From contig CBDAOY010000009.1 of assembly GCA_965198225.1 (NCBI GenBank), positions 896,001 to 960,000 on the forward strand: a stretch of DNA of 64,000 bases, given 5' to 3'. Source of the stretch: Terriglobia bacterium. GTDB taxonomy: Bacteria > Acidobacteriota > Terriglobia > 20CM-2-55-15. Below are positions 30,710 through 40,838 of this stretch, in pieces. A model generated the notes under the pieces. The model was given only the letters and a program-made list of their open reading frames with translations. It was not told where the DNA came from and ran no database searches. Within the stretch, counting starts at the first letter, position 1, and each line of letters starts with the position of its first letter. A program made the translations under genes and the position numbers.

Positions 30710-31210
30710 CTACGTCCTCATGACCAGCGTATCGGCGATCATGTCGTGGAGTGCCTGCTTCCGAGCCGAGAACGCCGCCATGATGAAACCGACGCCGAGG
30801 ATGAACGCGGAGAGATACTTGGCAAAATGTCTGCCTGTTGCCCGGCCGAATGTCAGACGCTGTCCATGGACGTCGGTGACGACTATCCCGAGTGCCATCT
30901 TGCCGAGAGTGGCCCTCGGTTCGCTACTCAACATGAGCGCTTCATACAGCCACGGCACGACCAGAAACGCGACGATACCCGGGCCCAACGACACGCCGGC
31001 GATCAAGGTGGTGATGATTCCGACGAAGATCCAGTCGATCAGGTAGGCGACAAACCGAATCCAGAATCCGCCGTATTGGACCGCAGGCGTAGCGACAGGT
31101 GGCGGAGCTTGGCCTGTCGGTGTGGCGCCCACGGGTATGGCCGCACCGCACGCCTGGCAAAACCGGGCGTGTTCAACGTTCGAGTGTCCACATGTAACGC
31201 AAACAGCCAT
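30710..31210 (-). CDS. Zinc-ribbon plus RDD family membrane protein
   Basis: CVTCG..FCQACG; GFWIRFVAYLID, TLGKMALG, QALHDMIADT. Confidence 0.92.
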   Translation of the reverse strand: MAVCVTCGHSNVEHARFCQACGAAIPVGATPTGQAPPPVATPAVQYGGFWIRFVAYLIDWIFVGIITTLIAGVSLGPGIVAFLVVPWLYEALMLSSEPRATLGKMALGIVVTDVHGQRLTFGRATGRHFAKYLSAFILGVGFIMAAFSARKQALHDMIADTLVMRT

Positions 31211-31281
31211 CGCTGCCCCCGTTTCGATCGTGAAACCCGCTAGAGGAGTTCCTGCCGGAGATCCTGGATCCAGCGGGTCTA

Positions 31282-31523
31282 GTGACCTGTAACAGTGCTA
31301 TCGGTACCAGCGTTCGGCGGAACGGGGCCGTCTTCGTTGTCGTCGACTCCTACCAATGAATGAGCATTGCGTCGTCGTCGACTCCTAGAATCCGACCCCG
31401 TTGCGCTCCGAACGATAGCGACGCTATTTCTGACTCAGGACACAAAATTCTAACCGATTTTTCGAACCTGCTCCCTCGACGATTTTGTCGAGCCGCTCCC
31501 TCCAGAGAGCACCTACAGCTACC
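31282..31523. mobile_element. Second IS630-ended MITE-like element (right end degenerate)
   Basis: CTA-GTGACCTGTAACAGT is identical to the IS630 end; 31308-31415 is the reverse-complement homologue of 14048-14155; possible decayed right end agcacctacagctaccag. Confidence 0.65.
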
Positions 31524-31549
31524 AGATACGATCTCGGAACAGATAAAGT

Positions 31550-32800
31550 TCAATCCGCCTCGCACAAAGCCGGTGATGGAACACGCTCGGTGGCAGCCGC
31601 AATCCTGGTCTCACCCAGTCGGGCCAGGGTTTCGCTCATATCGTTCTCCCCAAGGTCCATCATCTGACGGATCTTCTTCTGCGAAAACCAGCAGGTCCCG
31701 GTATAAAAACAACCCAGGGGCTTCGAGGGAACGATCGACAACACCTGGGGGAGGGGCCGGCTTTCGGTCGGGAGGGCTTGTTTGTCGTGCGCCTGCCATC
31801 GAAGCTCGGCCCACTCGCGCAGCGCTTCCTGTCCGCCAATTCCGTCCGAGGGGTATCGTTCGGGTCGCAGTTTCTTGAGGAAGCTCCTGCCGCCGAGTTC
31901 AGGTCGCGCGAGGCTCGTATTGACGACGAAAAGCACATCGATGGCGTCTTCCAAGTCGAACAGCAACGGGGCCAGGGGGATATTGTCGGTCCATCCCCCG
32001 TCCACGACCGCGTTATTCGGGTCGACTCGAGTTGCCAGCATCCCCGGGAAGCCCGTTCCTTTCAGGAGAATTTCGAGAGCCGCCTTTCTGTGCAGCCTAT
32101 CGAGGCGTACGTAGTGAGGAACCCAGCCACCCCACCGCACGGCATCCTCCGTGTAGGGTCGAAAGCGGGAAAGAGTCGCGTAGACGGGCGTTCTCTCGCG
32201 CCTTATCGTTTCGAAGCCTTCTTCGGTGATCGCTTTCTTCAATCGATGAGCGAGCGGGCTGGTCGTCGTGAACATGGGTGTCAGCAAGGCCCAGCGGTTC
32301 ACGTTGTGCGCGAGAGCGACGATGCCCACGACTGCGGCCGTCCACAAGGTCCATGTCGCTACCTGATCTGTACGGGACAGAGCGAATCCTCCCGCCGTGA
32401 ATCCCAGGCAAGCAATACCAAACACGGAGGCCGGTATGTGCCAGCGCTTTGCCGGGTTAGGATGGGTCATGCTCCCGGAGATCCTCAGGATCTTCAGAGG
32501 TGAGAACTCCGACACCAGGTACGCCAGTAGCCAGATCGGCAGGAACACCAGTTCGGCGGGCCTCAGCTTCACGACTTCCGACCAACGCAAGCCGGTCCAG
32601 GCGGACTCGGCTCCTTCGGACTCGCCGGCCGCGATCAAGGCGGCGTTCACTGCGCCGACAGAGGTTCCGGCGATTGCAGCGAACTGAGTCACACCGTGTT
32701 TTCGCAGTGCTCTCCAGCAGCCGATATGGTACGCCCCTTTTGCACCACCACCGGTAAGCACTAGACCTATATGTTTCTGCTTGAGTTGTGAGAGGGTCAT
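31550..32800 (-). CDS. Patatin-like phospholipase with internal hydrophobic (TM) insertion
   Basis: GGGAKG, GTSVG and VDGG motifs; 2-3 hydrophobic segments between the Ser and Asp motifs. Confidence 0.88.
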   Translation of the reverse strand: MTLSQLKQKHIGLVLTGGGAKGAYHIGCWRALRKHGVTQFAAIAGTSVGAVNAALIAAGESEGAESAWTGLRWSEVVKLRPAELVFLPIWLLAYLVSEFSPLKILRISGSMTHPNPAKRWHIPASVFGIACLGFTAGGFALSRTDQVATWTLWTAAVVGIVALAHNVNRWALLTPMFTTTSPLAHRLKKAITEEGFETIRRERTPVYATLSRFRPYTEDAVRWGGWVPHYVRLDRLHRKAALEILLKGTGFPGMLATRVDPNNAVVDGGWTDNIPLAPLLFDLEDAIDVLFVVNTSLARPELGGRSFLKKLRPERYPSDGIGGQEALREWAELRWQAHDKQALPTESRPLPQVLSIVPSKPLGCFYTGTCWFSQKKIRQMMDLGENDMSETLARLGETRIAAATERVPSPALCEAD

Positions 32801-32959
32801 GCAGCCGTCAAACCGTCAGTCCCGCGCTGAATCTGCTCATTGTCGTCACGATCGGGTTTCGCCTAGGATCACAAGCTGTTTCCGGCGACGGATGGGTCTG
32901 GAGGATACCTCAAAACAGGGTATACTGACGCCGAAAAATTTCAGTCAGGATGCGAAGAA

Positions 32960-34769
32960 GTGCAGCCTCGCGATTCGAGCACAGGATGCTCGACCATCGT
33001 TGATCTTCTACAATTCAGAGCTTCAAAGGAACCTCGTCGCCGGGCCCACACCTTCCTCAAGGACGGATTCCGCGAACAGAATCACTTGACCTATCGTGAG
33101 TTGGAGGTGCGTGCGCGGGCCATCGCAGCGTCTCTTCAGGGGGCGTCAAGTCCTGGCGACCGGGCCTTGCTGCTCTATCCCCCCGGCCTCGATTTCGTTG
33201 AGGCCGGATTTCGTTGAGGCCTTTTTGGGCTGCCTGTGTGCCGCCATCGTGGCCGTGCCGGCCTATCCACCTCGCTCGAATCAGGGCTCGAGCAGGATTC
33301 AGGCGATCATACGGGATGCGCGTCCGTCCGTCATTCTGACCACATCAAACAGCTTGCCGAAAGTCGAAGCGATGTGGGGCGATAGAGCGGCCGTCGCAGA
33401 AAGCCGTGTCCTGGCGACGGATGCGCCCGGCTCTTCCTTCCCCGAGAGCCCCGAACAATTGGTGGAAGGTTGGCGGGACTCGCATTGCGAAATCGGCGAA
33501 GGAACCCCTGCATACCTTCAATACACGTCTGGATCGACCTCCGAACCAAAGGGCGTGATCGTGACCCACGGCAACCTGGTGACGAATCTGCGAGACATGG
33601 ATCGCGGCTGGAAGCACGACGCCGACAGCGTCCTGGTGAGCTGGCTTCCGCACTTTCATGACATGGGACTCATCTACGGTATACTCGGGCCGCTGTACGC
33701 GGGAATTCCGGGGTATCTGCTGTCGCCCCTCTCCTTTCTGCAGCGGCCGGTTCGATGGTTGCAGGCAATGACCCATTACAGGGCGACTCACAGCGTGGCC
33801 CCAAACTTTGGGTACGAGCTCTGCGCGCGCAAGATCGCCGCGGAGGAACGAAACAGCCTCGATCTGGGAAACTGGTCCGTCGCTGTCAATGGTGCCGAGC
33901 CAGTCCGCCCAGAGACGCTGGAACGTTTTGCGCAATTCTTCGAGCCCTGTGGCTTCCGCCGAAGTGCCTTCTGCCCCGGCTACGGGCTGGCTGAGGCCAC
34001 GCTGAAGGTCACCGCGACGTGTAGAGATGAATCACCCGTCTTGACTCACCTGTCGAAGCAGGAGCTGGAGGGACACCACGTCGTGAAGTGCGATGCGGCA
34101 GAACAATCTCCCGAAGCCTTCACGCTGGTCGGTTGTGGCCGTTCAATGGTGGGGACCAGGGTCGCGATTGTTCACCCCGAAAAACTGACCTGCTGCTTGC
34201 CGGATGAAATCGGTGAAATCTGGGTGTCCGGCCAGACAGTGGCCGCTGGCTACTGGAACAGAGCCGAGGAGACCGCCGCAACCTTTCACGCATACACCGA
34301 GGACACAAGAGAGGGTCCTTTCCTGCGCACGGGTGATTTGGGGTTTGTGGAGGGAGGTCACCTGTACGTAACCGGGCGTATCAAGGATCTGATCATCATC
34401 CGAGGTCAGAACCACTACCCACAGGATGTCGAGCGGACTGCGGAGCGAAGCCACCCCGCCCTGCGTCAGCCCGGCTTCAGCGCCGCCTTTTCAATCGACG
34501 TCGCCAGCGAAGAGCGCCTCGTAGTTCTGGCAGAAGTCGAGCGTCGGTATCTGGACCAGGACACCGAAGAACTCGTGGGAGCCATCCGGCAGGCCATATC
34601 GGAAAACCACGAGTTGCAGGCATACGACGTCGTAATCGTTCGTCCTGGACGCATTCCGAAGACATCCAGCGGAAAGATCCGGCGGCGCGCCTGCAAGGCC
34701 GCTTATCTAGCCGGAGAGCTGGAAGCCGTCGAGAAAAAAAGGGAAGGGGGCCGTTCGAATGAATCCTGA
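32960..34769 (+). pseudogene. Fatty acyl-AMP ligase (FAAL), frameshifted by a 16-bp tandem duplication
   Basis: TIVDLLQFRA..LTYRELE..GDRALLLYPPGLDF in one frame; YLQYTSGSTSEPKGV, SWLPHFHDMGLI, YGLAEATL, LVGCG, RTGDLG and PKTSSGKIRR in the next; GATTTCGTTGAGGCC at 33191 and 33207. Confidence 0.9.
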
Positions 34770-36603
34770 ACCTGAGCGACCTGCCGTGACCGAACTCCTT
34801 GGCTCGACCGGCCTGTTCAACGTCCTGGACCGACCGACCTTGCAGGCTGTGGAAAGAGAGCTCGAGTGGGTCCGTCTCCCGGGCGGGACGACTCTGTTTC
34901 AACAGGGAGACACAGGAGATTCGTTGTATGTGCTGGTCCACGGCCGTTTGAGCGTTTCGATCGTTCATGAAGACGGACGGGAGCGCCCCATCGGCGAAGT
35001 GAGCCGCGGCGAGGTTGTCGGCGAGATGGCGGTTTTGACCGGAGAGCCGCGATCCGCAAACGTCCGCGCGATTCGAGATTCCCAGCTCGTGAAATTCTCC
35101 AAAGAAGCCTTTGAACGAGTCGTCGGAACCAATCCCAAGGCGATGATGTTGATCGCCCGAAGGCTCATCATGCGTTTGCGCGAGACCAGTCGAGCGACGT
35201 ACCAAACTACCCTGGCCACTTTTGCCGTGGTTCCACTGAGCCCGGACATCCCACTCGGGGAGTTTGCAAGGGGGATTGCCGAATCATTCTCGAGAATCGG
35301 ACCTACGCTGCACCTGAACCGCGACGTTCTTCAGAGTGCCCTCGGCGGATCCGTGAATTCGACACCCGAGGGCCGACGTGTCGAAGAGGTCTCCACATGG
35401 CTCGAAGAGCAGGAGGAGAAGTTCCAGTATGTCATCTACGAGTCGGACGCGGACAGCTCGGCGTGGTCCAATCTGTGTGTTCGCCAAGCCGATCGTGTTC
35501 TCCTGGTTGCCGCCGGCGGAGCCCGCACCGGCTCCACTACAGTCGAAGCTCAAATCCAGAACCTGTGTGCATGCGAAACGATCGCTCGAAAGGAGCTGGT
35601 CTTTCTCCATCGAAACGGCACGACGCGTCCCAGCGGTACTCAGGCATGGTTGGGTAGTCTCGGAGCCGGGGACATGCACCACCACATTCGTCACGAATCG
35701 AGTGCGGACTTTGACAGGCTTGCCCGGATACTTACCGGCAAATCTGTAGGTCTGGTCCTCGGCGGAGGGGGTGCAAGGGGCTTTGCACATCTCGGCATTC
35801 TTCGAGCGTTCGCGGACGTCGGCATCCCGATCGACATGATCGGCGGCACCAGCATGGGGTCCGTTATCGCGGCTCAGTATGCGCTGGGCTGCGATTATCA
35901 CGAGATGATCGAGTTGAACAGGAAGGGTTGGCTCGACATGGATCCACTGAAAGACAAGACGATACCGGTCATGGCTTTGCTGGCTTGCCGGAAGCTTGAC
36001 AGCATGATAGAGATGATGTTCGGTGACGCCAGGATTGAAGATCTCTGGCTGAAATACTTTTGTGTATCTGCCAATCTAACCCAGGCTGAAATGATGGTGC
36101 ACCGGGATGGCCCGCTTGCGAAGTGGGTTCGGGCAAGTATGGCGATACCCGGCGTTGCACTGCCGGTCTTCGACAACGGCGACCTGATCGTCGACGGCGG
36201 AGTGCTCAACAACCTGCCAGGCGACGTGATGAAGCGGATCTGTGGAGGCCCGGTCATTGCAGTCGACGTCAGTCCGCAGAAAGATCTCGCGATCGATCCC
36301 CACATGATCCATGCGCCATCGTCCTGGAAGATCCTCTGGAACAACGTCAACCCGGCTGCGGAACGAATGCACCTCCCCAACCTGCTCGCCCTTATGATGC
36401 GCACGACCATGCTCGGTAGCACGTCAAAGAGTCAGGAGGTCGCGCGAGAAGTCGATCTCTACCTGCGTCCTCCGATCGACGGCTTTGGTATATTCGAATG
36501 GAAGTCTCTGGAGAAGCTTGCTCAGGCGGGGTACGAGTTTGGGATAACAAAACTGGAAGAATGGAACAAGGAACGATCCATCCCGAAACCGAAACCAAGC
36601 TGA
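34759..36603 (+). CDS. cNMP-binding domain plus patatin (NTE-like) phospholipase
   Basis: LFQQGD..GEVVGEMAVLTGEPRSANVRA cassette; GGGGARG, GTSMG, VDGGVLNNLP. Confidence 0.92.
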   Translation: MNPEPERPAVTELLGSTGLFNVLDRPTLQAVERELEWVRLPGGTTLFQQGDTGDSLYVLVHGRLSVSIVHEDGRERPIGEVSRGEVVGEMAVLTGEPRSANVRAIRDSQLVKFSKEAFERVVGTNPKAMMLIARRLIMRLRETSRATYQTTLATFAVVPLSPDIPLGEFARGIAESFSRIGPTLHLNRDVLQSALGGSVNSTPEGRRVEEVSTWLEEQEEKFQYVIYESDADSSAWSNLCVRQADRVLLVAAGGARTGSTTVEAQIQNLCACETIARKELVFLHRNGTTRPSGTQAWLGSLGAGDMHHHIRHESSADFDRLARILTGKSVGLVLGGGGARGFAHLGILRAFADVGIPIDMIGGTSMGSVIAAQYALGCDYHEMIELNRKGWLDMDPLKDKTIPVMALLACRKLDSMIEMMFGDARIEDLWLKYFCVSANLTQAEMMVHRDGPLAKWVRASMAIPGVALPVFDNGDLIVDGGVLNNLPGDVMKRICGGPVIAVDVSPQKDLAIDPHMIHAPSSWKILWNNVNPAAERMHLPNLLALMMRTTMLGSTSKSQEVAREVDLYLRPPIDGFGIFEWKSLEKLAQAGYEFGITKLEEWNKERSIPKPKPS

Positions 36604-37559
36604 GAACCGTCGAGCAAATTGAAGAGTGGCTGACGGTTAACGTCGCCAGGGAATTGGAGCTTGATCCCGACAAGATCGATATCCATCAGCGGCTGAGCCG
36701 CTACGGTCTTGATTCTCTGGTGGCAGTCGGTCTTTCGGGCGAACTGGAAGTGTGGCTGGGACGCGAGCTCCCTCCGGACCTCCTGACGAGCTTTCCGACG
36801 ATCGAGGTCCTGGCGCAGTCCCTGGCGGAAGAGTCCGACATCGGTGGCTCGTCCAACCGGGCCACTCCCAACGAAACGGGTCCGGGCGGAGTCGATTACA
36901 CGCGACTGGACTATCGCGAATGGTCGCCGTCGCAACTCTTCGTTAAAAAGGCTCTGGCCCTCCTGGTGCGACTGCTGTTCCGCCTTCACGTCGAGGGGAT
37001 GATATACCTTCGACCCGAAGGTCCATATATTCTGGCAACCAACCACCTGCACGTCTTTGACGCACCCCTGGTGTTCTGTTTCTTGCCCCGGCCCACCGTG
37101 GCGTTCGTGTCGGAGCACATGAGAGCCGTCCCCGGCGTGAACTGGTTCTTGAAGAAAATGGCAAACACCATTTACGTGGCTCGCGGTGAAGGGGATCAGG
37201 AAGCCATCGGAAATGCGCTGGCTGTGCTCGGTACCGGAGGGGTGCTGGCCTTGGCCCCCGAGGGCAAGATCAGCAAAACAGGGGGGCTGCTTCGAGGGCA
37301 TCCGGGAGTTGTTCACCTGGCGACTCAATCCGGCGTACCGATCGTGCCCCTCGTGATTTATGGCCAGGAGCGGGCCTTCCATCACTGGGCCCGTTTGCGC
37401 CGGGTTCCCGTCTCCGTCCGTATCGGACCCGCCATTCAATTCCCGCAGGGCAAGGCGACCTCGAAACAACTCGATGCGCATCGAGACACCGTGATGCACG
37501 CTCTGGCGCGAATGCTGCCACCGGAGTACCGGGGTGTTTACCGGAACTCCTGGCCGTAG
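36561..37559 (+). CDS. Acyl carrier protein fused to a lysophospholipid acyltransferase (PlsC-like)
   Basis: YGLDSL phosphopantetheine site; NHLHVFD (HxxxxD), APEG, IVP; start codon uncertain. Confidence 0.88.
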   Translation: MEQGTIHPETETKLRTVEQIEEWLTVNVARELELDPDKIDIHQRLSRYGLDSLVAVGLSGELEVWLGRELPPDLLTSFPTIEVLAQSLAEESDIGGSSNRATPNETGPGGVDYTRLDYREWSPSQLFVKKALALLVRLLFRLHVEGMIYLRPEGPYILATNHLHVFDAPLVFCFLPRPTVAFVSEHMRAVPGVNWFLKKMANTIYVARGEGDQEAIGNALAVLGTGGVLALAPEGKISKTGGLLRGHPGVVHLATQSGVPIVPLVIYGQERAFHHWARLRRVPVSVRIGPAIQFPQGKATSKQLDAHRDTVMHALARMLPPEYRGVYRNSWP

Positions 37560-37602
37560 ACCTCGCACGGACGACCCTGCGAAGAGTAGAAAGAAGTGGG
37601 AT

Positions 37603-37754
37603 AACCACGGAGGCACGAAGGCACGGAGCACCTAGAACCGGGGAAAAATAGGTCGTTCCCAGCCTTTCCTGCTCGACGGGACACAGTGGCTCTCGGACGG
37701 ACTTTTTAGCTAAAACCAGACCAAGAAACTCCTTGCCTCTGTGCCTCCGTGGTT
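37603..37754. repeat. Inverted-repeat element (family D)
   Basis: AACCACGGAGGCAC ... GTGCCTCCGTGGTT, 14-bp perfect ends extending imperfectly to ~26 bp. Confidence 0.7.
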
Positions 37755-37818
37755 GGGTGTTGGCTGAGCAGAAGGGTCTGGGACCGCCGCTTCTTCCCCC
37801 GTGGTTAGAATCCCCCCG

Positions 37819-40518
37819 CTACTCACACCTCAACGCCGCAACCGGGTCCACCCGCGTCGCCCGGCGCGCGGGCACGTAGCCCGCAACCAGCGCCACGACG
37901 ATCATCGCAAGCGCGACCGAGACAAACGATATCGGGTCGCGACTGCTGACGCCGTAGAGGAAACCTTCCACCAACCGCGTGGCGGCCAGGGCCGCGATCA
38001 ACCCGATTCCGACGCCGATCCCTACTATCCCGGCCGCCTCACCGAGGACGATAGCGAAGACATCCGCCTGCCGCGCGCCGAGCGCCATGCGGATTCCGAT
38101 CTCCCGGGTGCGCCGGGCCATCGAGTACGACATCACCCCGTAGACCCCTACCGAGGCCAGGGCGAGGGCGAGGGCGCCAAACACCGCAATCAGCGCGACC
38201 CCCAGGTGTGCCGGGAACAGGGACGCGCTCATCTGTTCCGACATCGTTCGGACGTTGGCGACGGGAAGATTGGGCTCGATGTTTCTAACCTGCGCCTGGA
38301 TGGGATTGATGAGTGCTGTTGGATCGGTTGATGTGCGGACATGGAGGGTGACACCCGACTCATGGTTCTGAAGCAGCGGGAAATACACGAACGCGGGAAG
38401 GTTTTCAACCAGGCTGACGTACTTCCCGTCGCGGGTGATCCCGATTACCTCTCGCCTCGGTGAGTCGGGGCGGCCTAGCTGGAGGCGCTTTCCGATTGCG
38501 TTCTCTCCCGGCCAGTACCGCGCAGCCATCGCTTCATTGACAATGCACACGAGCGGTGCACCGTCTCCGTCGGTCCGACTGAAATCCCTGCCCGCGAGAA
38601 GCGGCATTCCCATCGTCCGGAAGTAGTTCAACGAAACGACGTTGGCGCCGACGATGTTCGGCGATCCCTGAGGCGGCGGGGTCTGTCCTTCGATCAGGAC
38701 GCTCACCCGGCGTCCGCCTCCGCCGAGCGCCGACACTCGGGCGACGGCCGCCGACTCGACTCCCGGGAGAGCTCCGGTTTCTTCCAGGACGCGATCGTAG
38801 AATGCCCGACCCTGTTGCTCGGAGTACGACACGAGGTTGATACTGAGCGGCATCAGGAGCATGCTGTCGGTTTCGAATCCCGGATCGATGGCCTGCGTTT
38901 TCTGCAGGCTGCGCAGGAACAGGCCCGTCCCGATCAGCAGCAGCACCGAAATGGCCACCTGAGACACAACGAACGCGGACCGAAGCTTCCATCGCCCCAC
39001 GCCGCGTATGACGGGGTTCAAGCTTGTCCGCGCCGCTTCGATGGCCGGCACGAGTCCGAACAGCCCGGCCGTCCCCAGGCAGGCGCCGAGAGTGAACAGC
39101 AGGACTCGTGTGTTCGGGATTGCGTCGAGCGTGATCGTGATCGGCAACAGGTTGATGCGCATGATCGCAGCAACCAGCAGGTTCGTACCCCAGACAGCCA
39201 GCGCGAGCCCTCCGATCCCCCCGAAGAGCGAGAGCAGGAGGCTTTCGGTCAGGAACTGGCGAATCAGGCGGCCGCGCCCCGCGCCCAGTGCGATTCGCGT
39301 CGCAATCTCGACGCGACGAGCCGTCGCCCGTGCCAGCAGCAGGTTCGCGACATTCGCACAGGCGATCAGCAGGACCAGCCCGACGACGACCATCAGAAGC
39401 GTGCCCGCCGGAGCCAGCGCGCTGCGCGCCTGCGGACTGCCGGAATCGGCCGGATAAGGGGTAAAGAGGACTCCCGAGTTCGTGTCCGGGTAGGCATTCT
39501 CCAAGCGGTTTGCCACGACCTGAAGCGATGCCGAAGCCGTTCCCATTCCCCCACCCGGCTTGAGCCGACCGAACATGTTCAGCCAGCGCGCACCCCGTCT
39601 GTCGAGCAGGTTGGCGTCCATGCCCACGGAGAATCCGGCCCGTGGCGGGCGCACCAGTTGCTGCATCATCGTCGGGACCCAGACGTCGGTGTCCTCGGTG
39701 ATGTTCCGTCCCGTGAACCTGGCAGGAGCGACGCCGATCACCGTGAAAAGTTGACCGTTCAGGGTCATCTGGCTTCCGAGCGCCGTGTCGTCTCCGCCGT
39801 AACGTTGATCCCAGAGTCGGTGGCTGATGACCGCAACCGGATGGGTCCCGGGAGTCTGATCTTCTTCCGGAACAAAGAAACGGCCGCCGGCTGGGTCGAG
39901 TCCGAGCAGGGAGAAGTAGTTTCCTGAAACAACCATCCCGGAAAGCGTTTCGGTCTGCTCTCCCGTGTCCCACGTCAGCGTGATCCCGCCGTAGGTTGCG
40001 AACCCGCTGAATGCGTCCACGTTGTCCCGGATGTCGACGTAGTCGGGGTAAGAGGTGCCGCTGTACGGATTCCGTTCGGAGCCGGAGAAGACGGACAGGA
40101 GTTCTTCCGTGTCCCGACCCGGACTCCCGGCGAACAACGTCGCGTCGATCAAAGTGAATATCGCCGTGTTGGCCCCGATGCCTATCGCGAGCGTCAGCAC
40201 GGCCACGGCGGTGAACCCGCGGTTCTGGACCAGCGTGCGGACTCCGTAGCGGACGTCCTGGAATAGTGTCTGCATGAGACCGTCTCCTTTGCGTTTGCGG
40301 GTTCCCGACGTTGGTGTCTCGTTCCTGAAGCTTCTGTAAAGGCTGAGGACGTCTTTGAAGTAGAGCCGACGCGCTTGACGAGCTCCGAGGAGATCGACGC
40401 GCTTCCGGAACAATTCGTCGATATCGCCCTCGATTTCTTCTCTCCAGTCCGGCCGACAGAGCAGTGCCAGAAACCATTTTGCAGCCGCGGGCGGCAGAGC
40501 CGCTTTAAGGTTTCGCAT
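37819..40518 (-). CDS. ABC-type permease, acidobacterial duplicated orphan permease (ADOP; MacB/FtsX twice)
   Basis: EEIEGDIDE prefix domain, QDVRYGVRTL, LLIACANVANLLLAR, RTREIGIRMALGA, PARRATRVDPVAALR; TGATG coupling to the PadR gene. Confidence 0.92.
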   Translation of the reverse strand: MRNLKAALPPAAAKWFLALLCRPDWREEIEGDIDELFRKRVDLLGARQARRLYFKDVLSLYRSFRNETPTSGTRKRKGDGLMQTLFQDVRYGVRTLVQNRGFTAVAVLTLAIGIGANTAIFTLIDATLFAGSPGRDTEELLSVFSGSERNPYSGTSYPDYVDIRDNVDAFSGFATYGGITLTWDTGEQTETLSGMVVSGNYFSLLGLDPAGGRFFVPEEDQTPGTHPVAVISHRLWDQRYGGDDTALGSQMTLNGQLFTVIGVAPARFTGRNITEDTDVWVPTMMQQLVRPPRAGFSVGMDANLLDRRGARWLNMFGRLKPGGGMGTASASLQVVANRLENAYPDTNSGVLFTPYPADSGSPQARSALAPAGTLLMVVVGLVLLIACANVANLLLARATARRVEIATRIALGAGRGRLIRQFLTESLLLSLFGGIGGLALAVWGTNLLVAAIMRINLLPITITLDAIPNTRVLLFTLGACLGTAGLFGLVPAIEAARTSLNPVIRGVGRWKLRSAFVVSQVAISVLLLIGTGLFLRSLQKTQAIDPGFETDSMLLMPLSINLVSYSEQQGRAFYDRVLEETGALPGVESAAVARVSALGGGGRRVSVLIEGQTPPPQGSPNIVGANVVSLNYFRTMGMPLLAGRDFSRTDGDGAPLVCIVNEAMAARYWPGENAIGKRLQLGRPDSPRREVIGITRDGKYVSLVENLPAFVYFPLLQNHESGVTLHVRTSTDPTALINPIQAQVRNIEPNLPVANVRTMSEQMSASLFPAHLGVALIAVFGALALALASVGVYGVMSYSMARRTREIGIRMALGARQADVFAIVLGEAAGIVGIGVGIGLIAALAATRLVEGFLYGVSSRDPISFVSVALAMIVVALVAGYVPARRATRVDPVAALRCE

Positions 40519-40838
40519 CACGACCTGGCCTCGAGCTGGTGCCACATCTTCTCCCGGATACGCCGCATATCGGTCAGGACGGCGATTCCGAATCGTGTGA
40601 TCCTGAAGAACCTCTTCCGCCGCCCCCCGCGTTGACTGGTAGCGCCGCCAACTCTGGATCGAAGGCACCGCTTGCGCTCCAGGCGATCCAGTGCCGCGTA
40701 GACTGCTCCTATCGAAACCGACCGTTCTGCCCCCTCTTCGAGAGCCTGCTGGATCGTCACGCCGTAGGCGTCATCGCCCAGGCTGTAGATAGTCAGCAAG
40801 ACCAGTTCTTCGAACTCACCGAGATGATTGCCCTTCAT
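40518..40838 (-). CDS. PadR family transcriptional regulator
   Basis: LGEFEELVLL, AYGVTI, GAVYAALDRLE, GGRRKRFF. Confidence 0.93.
   Translation of the reverse strand: MKGNHLGEFEELVLLTIYSLGDDAYGVTIQQALEEGAERSVSIGAVYAALDRLERKRCLRSRVGGATSQRGGRRKRFFRITRFGIAVLTDMRRIREKMWHQLEARS

Follow-up and report, generated by a model that had tools for sequence, protein, structure and literature searches.

A patatin, FAAL and ACP-acyltransferase cassette of Acidobacteriota as a candidate operon for acyl exchange on membrane lipids

What would a bacterium do with two patatin-type lipases, a fatty acyl-AMP ligase (FAAL) and an acyl carrier protein (ACP) fused to an acyltransferase (AT), all encoded side by side? 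The question is raised by a four-gene cassette in a Terriglobia bacterium (assembly GCA_965198225.1, here G000; 6.4 Mb, 9 contigs), within a stretch of 64,000 nucleotides that was analyzed as a whole and is called the window (G000:C9:896001-960000). The cassette lies between an RDD-family gene and a duplicated MacB/FtsX permease gene, and comprises PatA, FAAL, a patatin with a cyclic nucleotide monophosphate (cNMP)-binding domain and an NTE P-loop-like domain (cNMP-NTE-patatin, or cNMP-patatin), and ACP-AT (Table 1). We propose, with a probability of about one half, that the cassette is an accessory operon for lipid remodelling that is conserved in Terriglobia-type Acidobacteriota, and that in this operon a split relay resembling those of Aas and ElbD would be wired to lipases for a Lands-cycle-like acyl exchange, perhaps gated by cyclic AMP (cAMP) or cyclic GMP (cGMP).

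In the proposed scheme, the two patatin-type lipases would act at the cytoplasmic face of the cell's own membrane and release free fatty acid and lysolipid. FAAL would adenylate the free fatty acid and load it onto the phosphopantetheine arm of the ACP domain, and the PlsC-type AT fused to that ACP would hand the chain on to a lyso-glycerolipid, for which lysophosphatidic acid and lysophospholipids are candidates. The cyclic nucleotide-binding (CNB) domain would switch the soluble NTE-like lipase on or off, with PatA as its membrane-inserted partner, and the whole set would exchange acyl chains on existing lipids in the manner of a Lands cycle. The enzymatic steps, the acceptor lipid, the direction of flux and the gating by cNMP are all predicted from sequence.

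The four genes and their motifs

The first-pass annotation had described three overlapping genes beside a divergent patatin, and the open reading frames (ORFs) and domains match that description, with all catalytic motifs intact. FAAL and cNMP-patatin overlap by 11 nt (ORF coordinates), and cNMP-patatin overlaps ACP-AT by 43 nt if the latter starts at 36561, which is the start of database protein P0001, or by 106 nt if it starts at 36498. The GC content of the cassette (0.57-0.61) is similar to that of its flanks. The divergent intergenic region presumably holds both promoters; no sigma-70 site was found there in a pattern scan of 31200-37900, which gave 2 promoter-like sites against 1.4 expected. 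A second, diverged strain that co-occurs with the window's strain was seen in runs X3 and X5 over 32600-32958, where the 5′ part of PatA adjoins the intergenic region; over these 359 nt the two strains show 35 differences, with a further 19 letters gapped.

The two lipases differ in their likely relation to the membrane. PatA carries the oxyanion motif GGGAKG (residues 17-22), the nucleophile motif GTSVG (Ser47) and DGG (Asp267), and Kyte-Doolittle hydropathy indicated hydrophobic segments at residues 40-58, 84-102, 124-142 and 147-165. The patatin fold is thereby interrupted between Ser47 and Asp267, at about residues 84-165, by two to three inserted hydrophobic helices, and because the motifs and the hydrophobic insert are kept in six orthologues, the earlier label of a membrane-embedded patatin is a fair one for PatA. 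By the same measure, no hydrophobic segment was found in cNMP-patatin, ACP-AT or FAAL, bar one in the frameshifted N-terminal stretch of the assembled FAAL ORF, consistent with a cytoplasmic location of these three proteins.

All three Pfam domains of cNMP-patatin (PF00027, PF24179 and PF01734) score above their cut-offs and occur in the same order in eight orthologues. Its catalytic motifs are GGGGARG, GTSMG (Ser365) and DGG (Asp479), and PDB matches were PlpD for the patatin domain and PKA-R and CRP for the CNB domain. The patatin motifs are invariant in the seven PatA and nine cNMP-patatin sequences aligned, the exception being the PatA of locus L002, which has DGK. The phosphate-binding cassette of the CNB domain, G88-E89...R98-S99, reads GEMAVLTGEPRSA, and its G, E and R do not vary among nine sequences. 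The first-pass identification of a cNMP-binding patatin is thus upheld, as the phosphate-binding cassette and the Ser-Asp dyads of both patatins are intact and conserved. Other acidobacterial cNMP-NTE-patatin paralogues carry two CNB domains; the window protein carries one.

The ACP domain of ACP-AT has its serine in GLDSL, and the AT domain has NHLHVFD (HX4D) and PEG. In an alignment of 25 sequences (A1), G49, D51 and S52, N161-H162...D167 and P233-E234-G235 were invariant. The best structural match of the AlphaFold model (pLDDT 80.6, with the ACP helices modelled) was Thermotoga maritima PlsC (5KYM; E=4e-10, TM 0.59 on the target), and the N-terminal domain of the model matched carrier proteins at TM 0.8-0.9. 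The best NCBIfam matches of the AT domain, at domain level only, were Aas-type acyl-ACP:phospholipid acyltransferase models (PRK08633, E=9e-16; PRK06814; PRK08043). The HxxxxD acyltransferase fused to an ACP that had been recognized at the outset therefore stands, its AT domain resembling both Aas and PlsC. By its HX4D and PEG motifs and modelled PlsC fold, the AT domain is a predicted PlsC-type lysophospholipid acyltransferase (LPLAT) of the 1-acylglycerol-3-phosphate acyltransferase (AGPAT) kind, and by its DS(L) serine and modelled four-helix bundle, the ACP domain is a predicted carrier for which phosphopantetheinylation is expected. Close relatives with an intact ACP-AT (P0002-P0004; 83-89% identity) lie on long contigs.

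The adenylating enzyme is a predicted FAAL, nearer to FAALs than to acyl-coenzyme A (CoA) synthetases. The top NCBIfam matches were PRK05850 (439.8 bits) and FadD32 (413.9 bits), ahead of CoA-ligase models; the PRK05850 score is under the curated cut-off of 775 and was obtained on a 557-aa ORF without the N-terminal ~75 residues. Moreover, the 15 best PDB sequence matches were all FAALs or FAAL domains (E=7e-139 to 8e-65). Hallmarks of FAALs, in the available part of the source, are a FAAL-specific insertion and a CoA-rejecting pocket (PMC8460268). Residues 38-545 align to residues 75-568 of a 572-residue FAAL chain as one ungapped-length stretch, which bears on these hallmarks only indirectly.

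As assembled, FAAL starts at the GTG at 32960, keeps one frame until about 33205 and continues in a second frame from there to 34769. The break is caused at 33191-33221, where a 15-nt direct repeat (repeat family D17) and a single G together make up 16 nt, and removal of one repeat copy gives a single frame of 598 codons including the stop, which is the sole stop, and this frame aligns along eight orthologues. FAAL had at first been thought to need repair. The allele was checked over 32600-33900 in Logan contigs of four runs from four studies (X1, X3, X4 and X5), one of which may be the source sample and all of which, as contigs, drop rare variants. The 16 letters at 33191 were missing at full depth from all four runs, with 0-1 other differences, so that FAAL probably needs no repair after all; the intact allele is the allele in every run. 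The insertion is likely an assembly artefact or a rare or minor variant. It lengthens a hairpin at 33183-33207, which was scored as a "terminator" in a terminator scan, and the lengthened hairpin could have promoted slippage in vivo or, alternatively, an error in the consensus. We conclude that FAAL is probably not broken in nature and that the frameshifted FAAL of this assembly should not be annotated as a pseudogene.

Table 1. Coordinates of the cassette, its domains and flanks, and of related genes elsewhere in the genome (positions are those of the window unless a contig is named)
Feature	Position	Strand	Details
RDD-family gene	30710-31210	-	left neighbour
Left-flank dispersed repeat	31309-31450	.	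like a miniature inverted-repeat transposable element (MITE); outside the cassette; matched in related genomes
PatA	31550-32800	-	416 aa; Pfam Patatin, E=5e-19; best PDB sequence match PlpD
PatA-FAAL divergent intergenic region	32801-32959	.	159 bp
FAAL	32960-34769	+	GTG start; two frames as assembled, 32960-33217 and 33096-34769; Pfam AMP-binding (E=6e-56), AMP-dom_DIP2-like
16-nt insertion in FAAL	33191-33206	+	15-nt direct repeat GATTTCGTTGAGGCC plus one G
cNMP-NTE-patatin	34759-36603	+	614 aa; Pfam cNMP_binding, NTE_Ploop, Patatin
CNB domain	34870-35130		PF00027, residues 38-124
NTE P-loop-like domain	35212-35697		PF24179, residues 152-313
Patatin domain	35752-36219		PF01734, residues 332-487
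ACP-AT	36561-37559	+	332 aa; alternative ATG at 36498; Pfam PP-binding, Acyltransferase
ACP domain	36627-36818
AT domain	36981-37358
Right-flank inverted repeat	37603-37754	.	outside the cassette; arms like repetitive extragenic palindromic (REP) elements
MacB/FtsX permease, duplicated	37819-40668	-	right neighbour
Fused AMP-binding/PP-binding/Acyltransferase gene	G000:C6 about 752139-755930 (L120:640-4431)		ElbD-like without reductase
Fused AMP-binding/PP-binding/Acyltransferase gene	G000:C8 about 804938-807496 (L121:2439-4997)	-	ElbD-like without reductase

Recurrence of the gene set and its flanks

An alignment of ACP-AT was used to fetch loci, 8 from species genomes and 80 from metagenomes, which were then searched by tblastn with the window proteins; one extra locus, L101, came from a sample of the phylum. 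Outside the window, 20 loci have the ACP-AT didomain. The pattern scan of genome contigs, which gave 8 loci, missed G234 and is therefore an under-count. FAAL was found upstream of ACP-AT in every one of the 13 loci not fused to a polyketide synthase (PKS) that reach far enough. Among the 16 loci with at least 300 nt upstream, cNMP-NTE-patatin lies directly upstream of ACP-AT in 12 (L002, L003, L021, L022, L025, L026, L027, L028, L031, L032, L033 and L101), FAAL does so in 3 that represent one species (L001, L023 and L024, 99.4-99.9% identical), and an in-frame PKS ketoreductase (KR) domain does so in 1 (L035). PatA is present in 10 of the 15 loci with at least 700 nt downstream of ACP-AT; there it is always convergent and downstream of ACP-AT, whereas in the window it is divergent and upstream of FAAL. 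In L002, L003, L027, L031 and L032, a single contig carries all four genes.

Where PatA was not detected, a further lipase type was sometimes found. An LCAT-like alpha/beta hydrolase of 463-465 aa lies directly upstream of FAAL in L021, L022 and L025, and its presence for PatA looks like a lipase-for-lipase replacement; L021 and L022 extend only 419 and 544 nt downstream of the AT, and PatA may lie beyond. About 13 distinct lineages share the same gene order, with proteins that are 40-60% identical. Moreover, 19 of the 20 cassette-labelled rows of an AT-domain tree, the window included, fall in one group of about 13 lineages (SH-aLRT 86), and the twentieth, L041, falls among the PKS-fused rows. 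The co-occurrence of four genes proposed from the window alone is thus confirmed in other loci. We conclude that FAAL and ACP-AT are an invariant core around which the lipase partners vary, and that the co-occurrence of the cassette genes is far beyond chance.

The flanks were scanned with Pfam for 104 ORFs around nine cassette loci and for 5 ORFs each around L021 and L101, 11 loci in total. No ketosynthase (KS), condensation or cyclase domain was found in these flanks, which hold unrelated housekeeping genes. The absence of PKS and nonribosomal peptide synthetase (NRPS) genes first noted in the window thus extends to the closest homologous loci, 0 of 11 of which carry such a gene in the flanks. 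In L003, a 719-aa fusion of a Zn-dependent phospholipase C with a phosphoesterase-family domain (L003:10415-12574) lies about 0.9 kb from the cassette PatA, followed by two Crp-type regulators, within 8 kb.

Repeats flank the cassette on both sides, and the first-pass annotation had read them as mobile repeats that bracket it. The repeats exist, but they belong to two unrelated dispersed families and do not mark the cassette as one mobile unit. Copies of the left-flank repeat (about 90-135 nt, 77-94% identity) occur many times in G000 (contigs C5, C6, C7 and C9) and in 20+ related genomes; it is also found at many places in G015, G021, G005, G012, G019 and G020 and spans genera of the family. 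The right-flank inverted repeat (I2) has 26-nt arms, AACCACGGAGGCAC..., that are 88% complementary and 100 nt apart, and the arms have 51 matches in G000 including their own place (at least 50 others), often paired. A repeat-bounded mobile unit was ruled out by the differing repeat families and by syntenic cassette remnants in same-genus genomes, and the GC content is like that of the flanks.

More distant relatives join the same domains in other ways. ACP-AT didomains at 40-44% identity are the C termini of type I proteins resembling PKS or fatty acid synthase (FAS): in L035, an (ER)-KR-ACP-AT protein, with ER for enoylreductase, lies beside a luciferase-like oxygenase and a desaturase; in L038, a two-CNB NTE-patatin is followed by KS, dehydratase (DH) and ER-KR-ACP-AT; and P0121 is a PKS-type protein. 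P0121 was also the only protein found in a search for longer, fused ACP-AT forms; the search gave no close FAAL-ACP-AT fusion, a blank that is weak evidence. An AT-only homologue directly follows cNMP-NTE-patatin in L063, L069 and L078, and in L063 (3897-7762) that pair is preceded by a fatty-acid desaturase and by a 703-aa protein whose C terminus is a cytochrome-b5 domain. On the AT tree, the cassette, PKS-fused and cNMP-patatin-linked AT-only groups fall outside the main AT-only clade (49 rows, SH-aLRT 97), with a branching order among them that the tree does not resolve. We conclude that an NTE-type lipase is repeatedly paired with an LPLAT, and that the acyl supply in these pairings is of three kinds.

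That pairing is not general for the lipase. cNMP-NTE-patatin was found at E<=1e-40 in 16 of 401 sampled genomes of the phylum (G000 and G062 included), and the idea that cNMP-NTE-patatins generally stand beside LPLATs was ruled out, as 13 of 14 fetched acidobacterial loci are without one. Next to one stand-alone cNMP-NTE-patatin, a 1,099-aa ORF (L107:4855-8154, genome G224) combines two cNMP-binding domains, a BFD-like [2Fe-2S] domain and a nitric-oxide synthase oxygenase domain. G000 itself has five PF01553 matches, two of which are the fused AMP-binding-ACP-AT genes on C6 and C8; the C6 gene probably starts later than its ORF, and a fused paralogue from this genome is 26% identical over ACP-AT.

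Known systems and rival explanations

Escherichia coli Aas, which acts with LplT, shares the logic proposed for the cassette: ATP activation of a free fatty acid, holding on ACP and PlsC-type transfer to a lysophospholipid. Aas is one polypeptide, with AT followed by the AMP-binding domain, that uses the general ACP of the cell, whereas the cassette has a separate FAAL-type adenylating enzyme, a dedicated ACP fused to the AT and two lipase genes in the operon, and no LplT-like transporter was seen in domain and flank scans of the cassette. With its genes separate and a PRK08043 score of 46.2 bits against a cut-off of 886, the cassette is not a member of the Aas family. The cNMP-patatin in turn shares the order of cNMP-binding, NTE P-loop-like and patatin domains with NTE/PNPLA6. 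NTE deacylates phosphatidylcholine and lysophospholipids, and the eukaryotic proteins have an N-terminal membrane anchor and several CNB domains. In contrast, cNMP-patatin has one CNB domain and no N-terminal membrane segment, and lies in an operon with predicted reacylation genes. No published function for a bacterial NTE-family member was found in literature searches.

Myxococcus ElbD (FAR-ACS-ACP-AGPAT), of an ether-lipid pathway, shares the unit of an AMP-binding enzyme, ACP and AGPAT-like acyltransferase. The available part of one study describes ElbD as joining acyl-CoA synthetase (ACS), ACP and AGPAT-like domains, and ElbD-like proteins without the reductase domain from other phyla (PMC9131029); homologues in Acidobacteriota are reported in the accessible portions of that study and of a preprint (bioRxiv 10.64898/2026.06.23.733905). 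In the cassette, by comparison, the adenylating part is split off as FAAL and patatin genes are inserted, and no NAD-binding or reductase (FAR) domain was detected by Pfam in the four proteins or in the flanks of cassette loci. The AGPAT domain of myxobacterial Pfa3 is presumed, in the text available, to put the finished chain on 1-acylglycerol-3-phosphate (PMC6731297). LPLAT off-loading from a carrier of the same system would be common to the cassette and to Pfa3 or PKS/FAS-terminal ACP-AT proteins, with which its didomain is homologous, but the cassette would build no acyl chain, FAAL taking the place of the KS-DH-ER-KR part. The cassette is a split relative of a fused architecture that is noted but not explained in the parts available of three papers (PMC8460268, PMC12820801, PMC9131029). 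We conclude that the cassette would work like Aas- or ElbD-like relays and like the AGPAT off-loading of Pfa3, but that it differs in architecture from each of them.

One way in which the same enzymes could serve another end is the biosynthesis of a specialised lipid. FAAL, ACP and AT would then put a particular fatty acid on a non-standard acceptor, such as an aminolipid, a glycolipid, a hopanoid or lipid A precursor, or a precursor of the glycerol-3-phosphate or dihydroxyacetone phosphate type as proposed for ElbD-like proteins, and the patatins would be trimming or maturation hydrolases or transacylases. We consider this unlikely, if worth keeping in view. It is in line with the distant ACP-AT relatives that end synthases making their own acyl chain, with the reductase-less ElbD-like proteins of other phyla and the two further fusions in G000, and with contexts of FAAL plus LPLAT that are called uncharacterized in the available parts of two papers (PMC12820801, PMC8460268). 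No head-group, sugar, amino-acid or reductase gene is conserved beside the cassette in the 11 loci, however, and the nearest non-fused AT relatives are annotated as plain PlsC-type enzymes, some fused to cytidylate kinase. Moreover, the core is repeatedly accompanied by lipases of two or three types, a pattern more in keeping with substrate supply than with maturation.

The varying lipases could instead be bystanders. The cassette would then only salvage exogenous or recycled free fatty acids into membrane lipids, as Aas does, and the patatins would degrade foreign or damaged lipids, co-regulated with the relay but uncoupled from it. The resemblance of the AT to the AT domain of Aas and the invariance of FAAL and ACP-AT (13 of 13 loci) beside variable lipases are consistent with salvage. 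However, cNMP-patatin sits between FAAL and ACP-AT, overlapping or tightly spaced, in the 12 of 16 loci, which argues for stoichiometric co-expression, and it has neither a signal peptide-like nor a hydrophobic N terminus, so that it is unlikely to act on external lipids. We regard salvage alone as quite improbable.

That the locus is the remnant of a truncated PKS/NRPS cluster, or is decaying and non-functional, is very improbable. The frameshift of FAAL in the window assembly and in two assemblies of the L001 species, the deletion of the cassette in same-genus genomes and the PKS fusion of distant relatives all fit decay, but the window's frameshift is absent from the contigs of four runs, the catalytic motifs are invariant across orthologues at 40-60% identity, which points to purifying selection, and neither KS nor condensation domains occur in the flanks of 11 loci. 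A defence role was raised in the first-pass annotation because patatin and cNMP-binding effectors occur in CBASS and Pycsar. In such an anti-phage role, a cyclic nucleotide made on infection would activate patatin to destroy the membrane while FAAL and ACP-AT serve repair or immunity; a patatin lipase or a CNB domain is likewise under a nucleotide second messenger in CBASS CapV and Pycsar effectors. This role deserves almost no credence: neither in the window nor in the 11 loci is the cassette adjoined by a cyclase or CD-NTase gene, the flanks are housekeeping in kind (one AbiV-like gene lies about 3 kb off, in L002 only), the PADLOC/NCBIfam matches are at domain level and far under family level (E=7e-16 to the CNB part of TIR effectors; CBASS_lipase E=1e-7, 31.5 bits against a cut-off of 200), and the FAAL and ACP-AT partners, with 0 PADLOC matches, do not fit such systems.

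Weighing acyl exchange and its bearing on acidobacterial lipids

Several observations weigh against acyl exchange as the function of the cassette. All functions assigned here rest on homology and synteny, and the acyl chain could go to an acceptor that is not a phospholipid. Some lineages do without one or other of the lipase partners: L025, L028 and L101 are without PatA; the species of L001, L023 and L024 is without cNMP-patatin and has a frameshifted FAAL, with the same frameshift in two assemblies (L001:8640-8860, L023:205-425); and in L021 an in-frame deletion of the NTE P-loop and patatin domains leaves a CNB-only protein of 227 aa (L021:9304-9987), whereas the near-twin L022 has the whole cNMP-patatin (L022:8131-9981). 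In two genomes of the same genus, G002 (L005/L011) and G003 (L004/L010), about 5.3 kb of the cassette is deleted, leaving remnants of PatA (aa 331-416) and of the AT (aa 231-350) between RDD and MacB, at about 9815-10360 in L004; because these remnants are at the same place, the cassette is taken as ancestral at this locus in the genus. Only L101 among the 14 fetched acidobacterial cNMP-NTE-patatin loci has the cassette, and the two fused AMP-binding-ACP-AT genes of G000 indicate that the architecture need not imply a cycle with lipases. Finally, of 9 sequences, 6 have S after the phosphate-binding cassette Arg, 2 have F and 1 has L, so that any ligand named for the CNB domain is tentative. 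We conclude that the cassette is rare, accessory and often lost, and that its catalytic residues are invariant where it is kept.

Deacylation, activation and reacylation nevertheless remain the best reading of the cassette, because the gene set recurs, no PKS or NRPS lies nearby, the AT is like those of Aas and PlsC, and the motifs are intact. Of the self-contained pathway proposed at the outset, the gene set, the motifs and the PKS-free context have held up, and the pathway itself is still read from gene content. Eight class III cyclase-domain matches lie elsewhere in G000 and none in the window, so that a cNMP signal could come in trans. More tentatively, and with more doubt than confidence, we suggest that the cell's own phospholipids may be stripped of acyl chains by a membrane-inserted patatin together with an NTE-type phospholipase under the control of cAMP or cGMP, while a private FAAL/ACP/LPLAT relay restores chosen fatty acids, which would amount to a signal-driven rewriting of acyl chains without de novo synthesis. 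No description of this cassette was found in literature searches, although the supplements of one paper (PMC12820801; Table S1, Figure S1, FAAL/LPLAT contexts) may list such loci.

If acyl exchange is indeed the function of the cassette, then the roles of FAALs would extend beyond PKS/NRPS pathways, and a regulated, self-contained machine for membrane remodelling would exist in some bacteria. Phospholipid acyl-chain remodelling is central in eukaryotes; in bacteria it is, to our knowledge, known mainly as the LplT/Aas repair path. We likewise know of no established function or CNB-domain ligand for bacterial NTE homologues, for which the cassette would give a testable context and a first tractable bacterial model of how CNB domains regulate an esterase of the NTE/PNPLA6 family. 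Acidobacterial membrane lipids are used in palaeoclimate proxies, and such an operon would bear on the membrane-lipid biology of this phylum.

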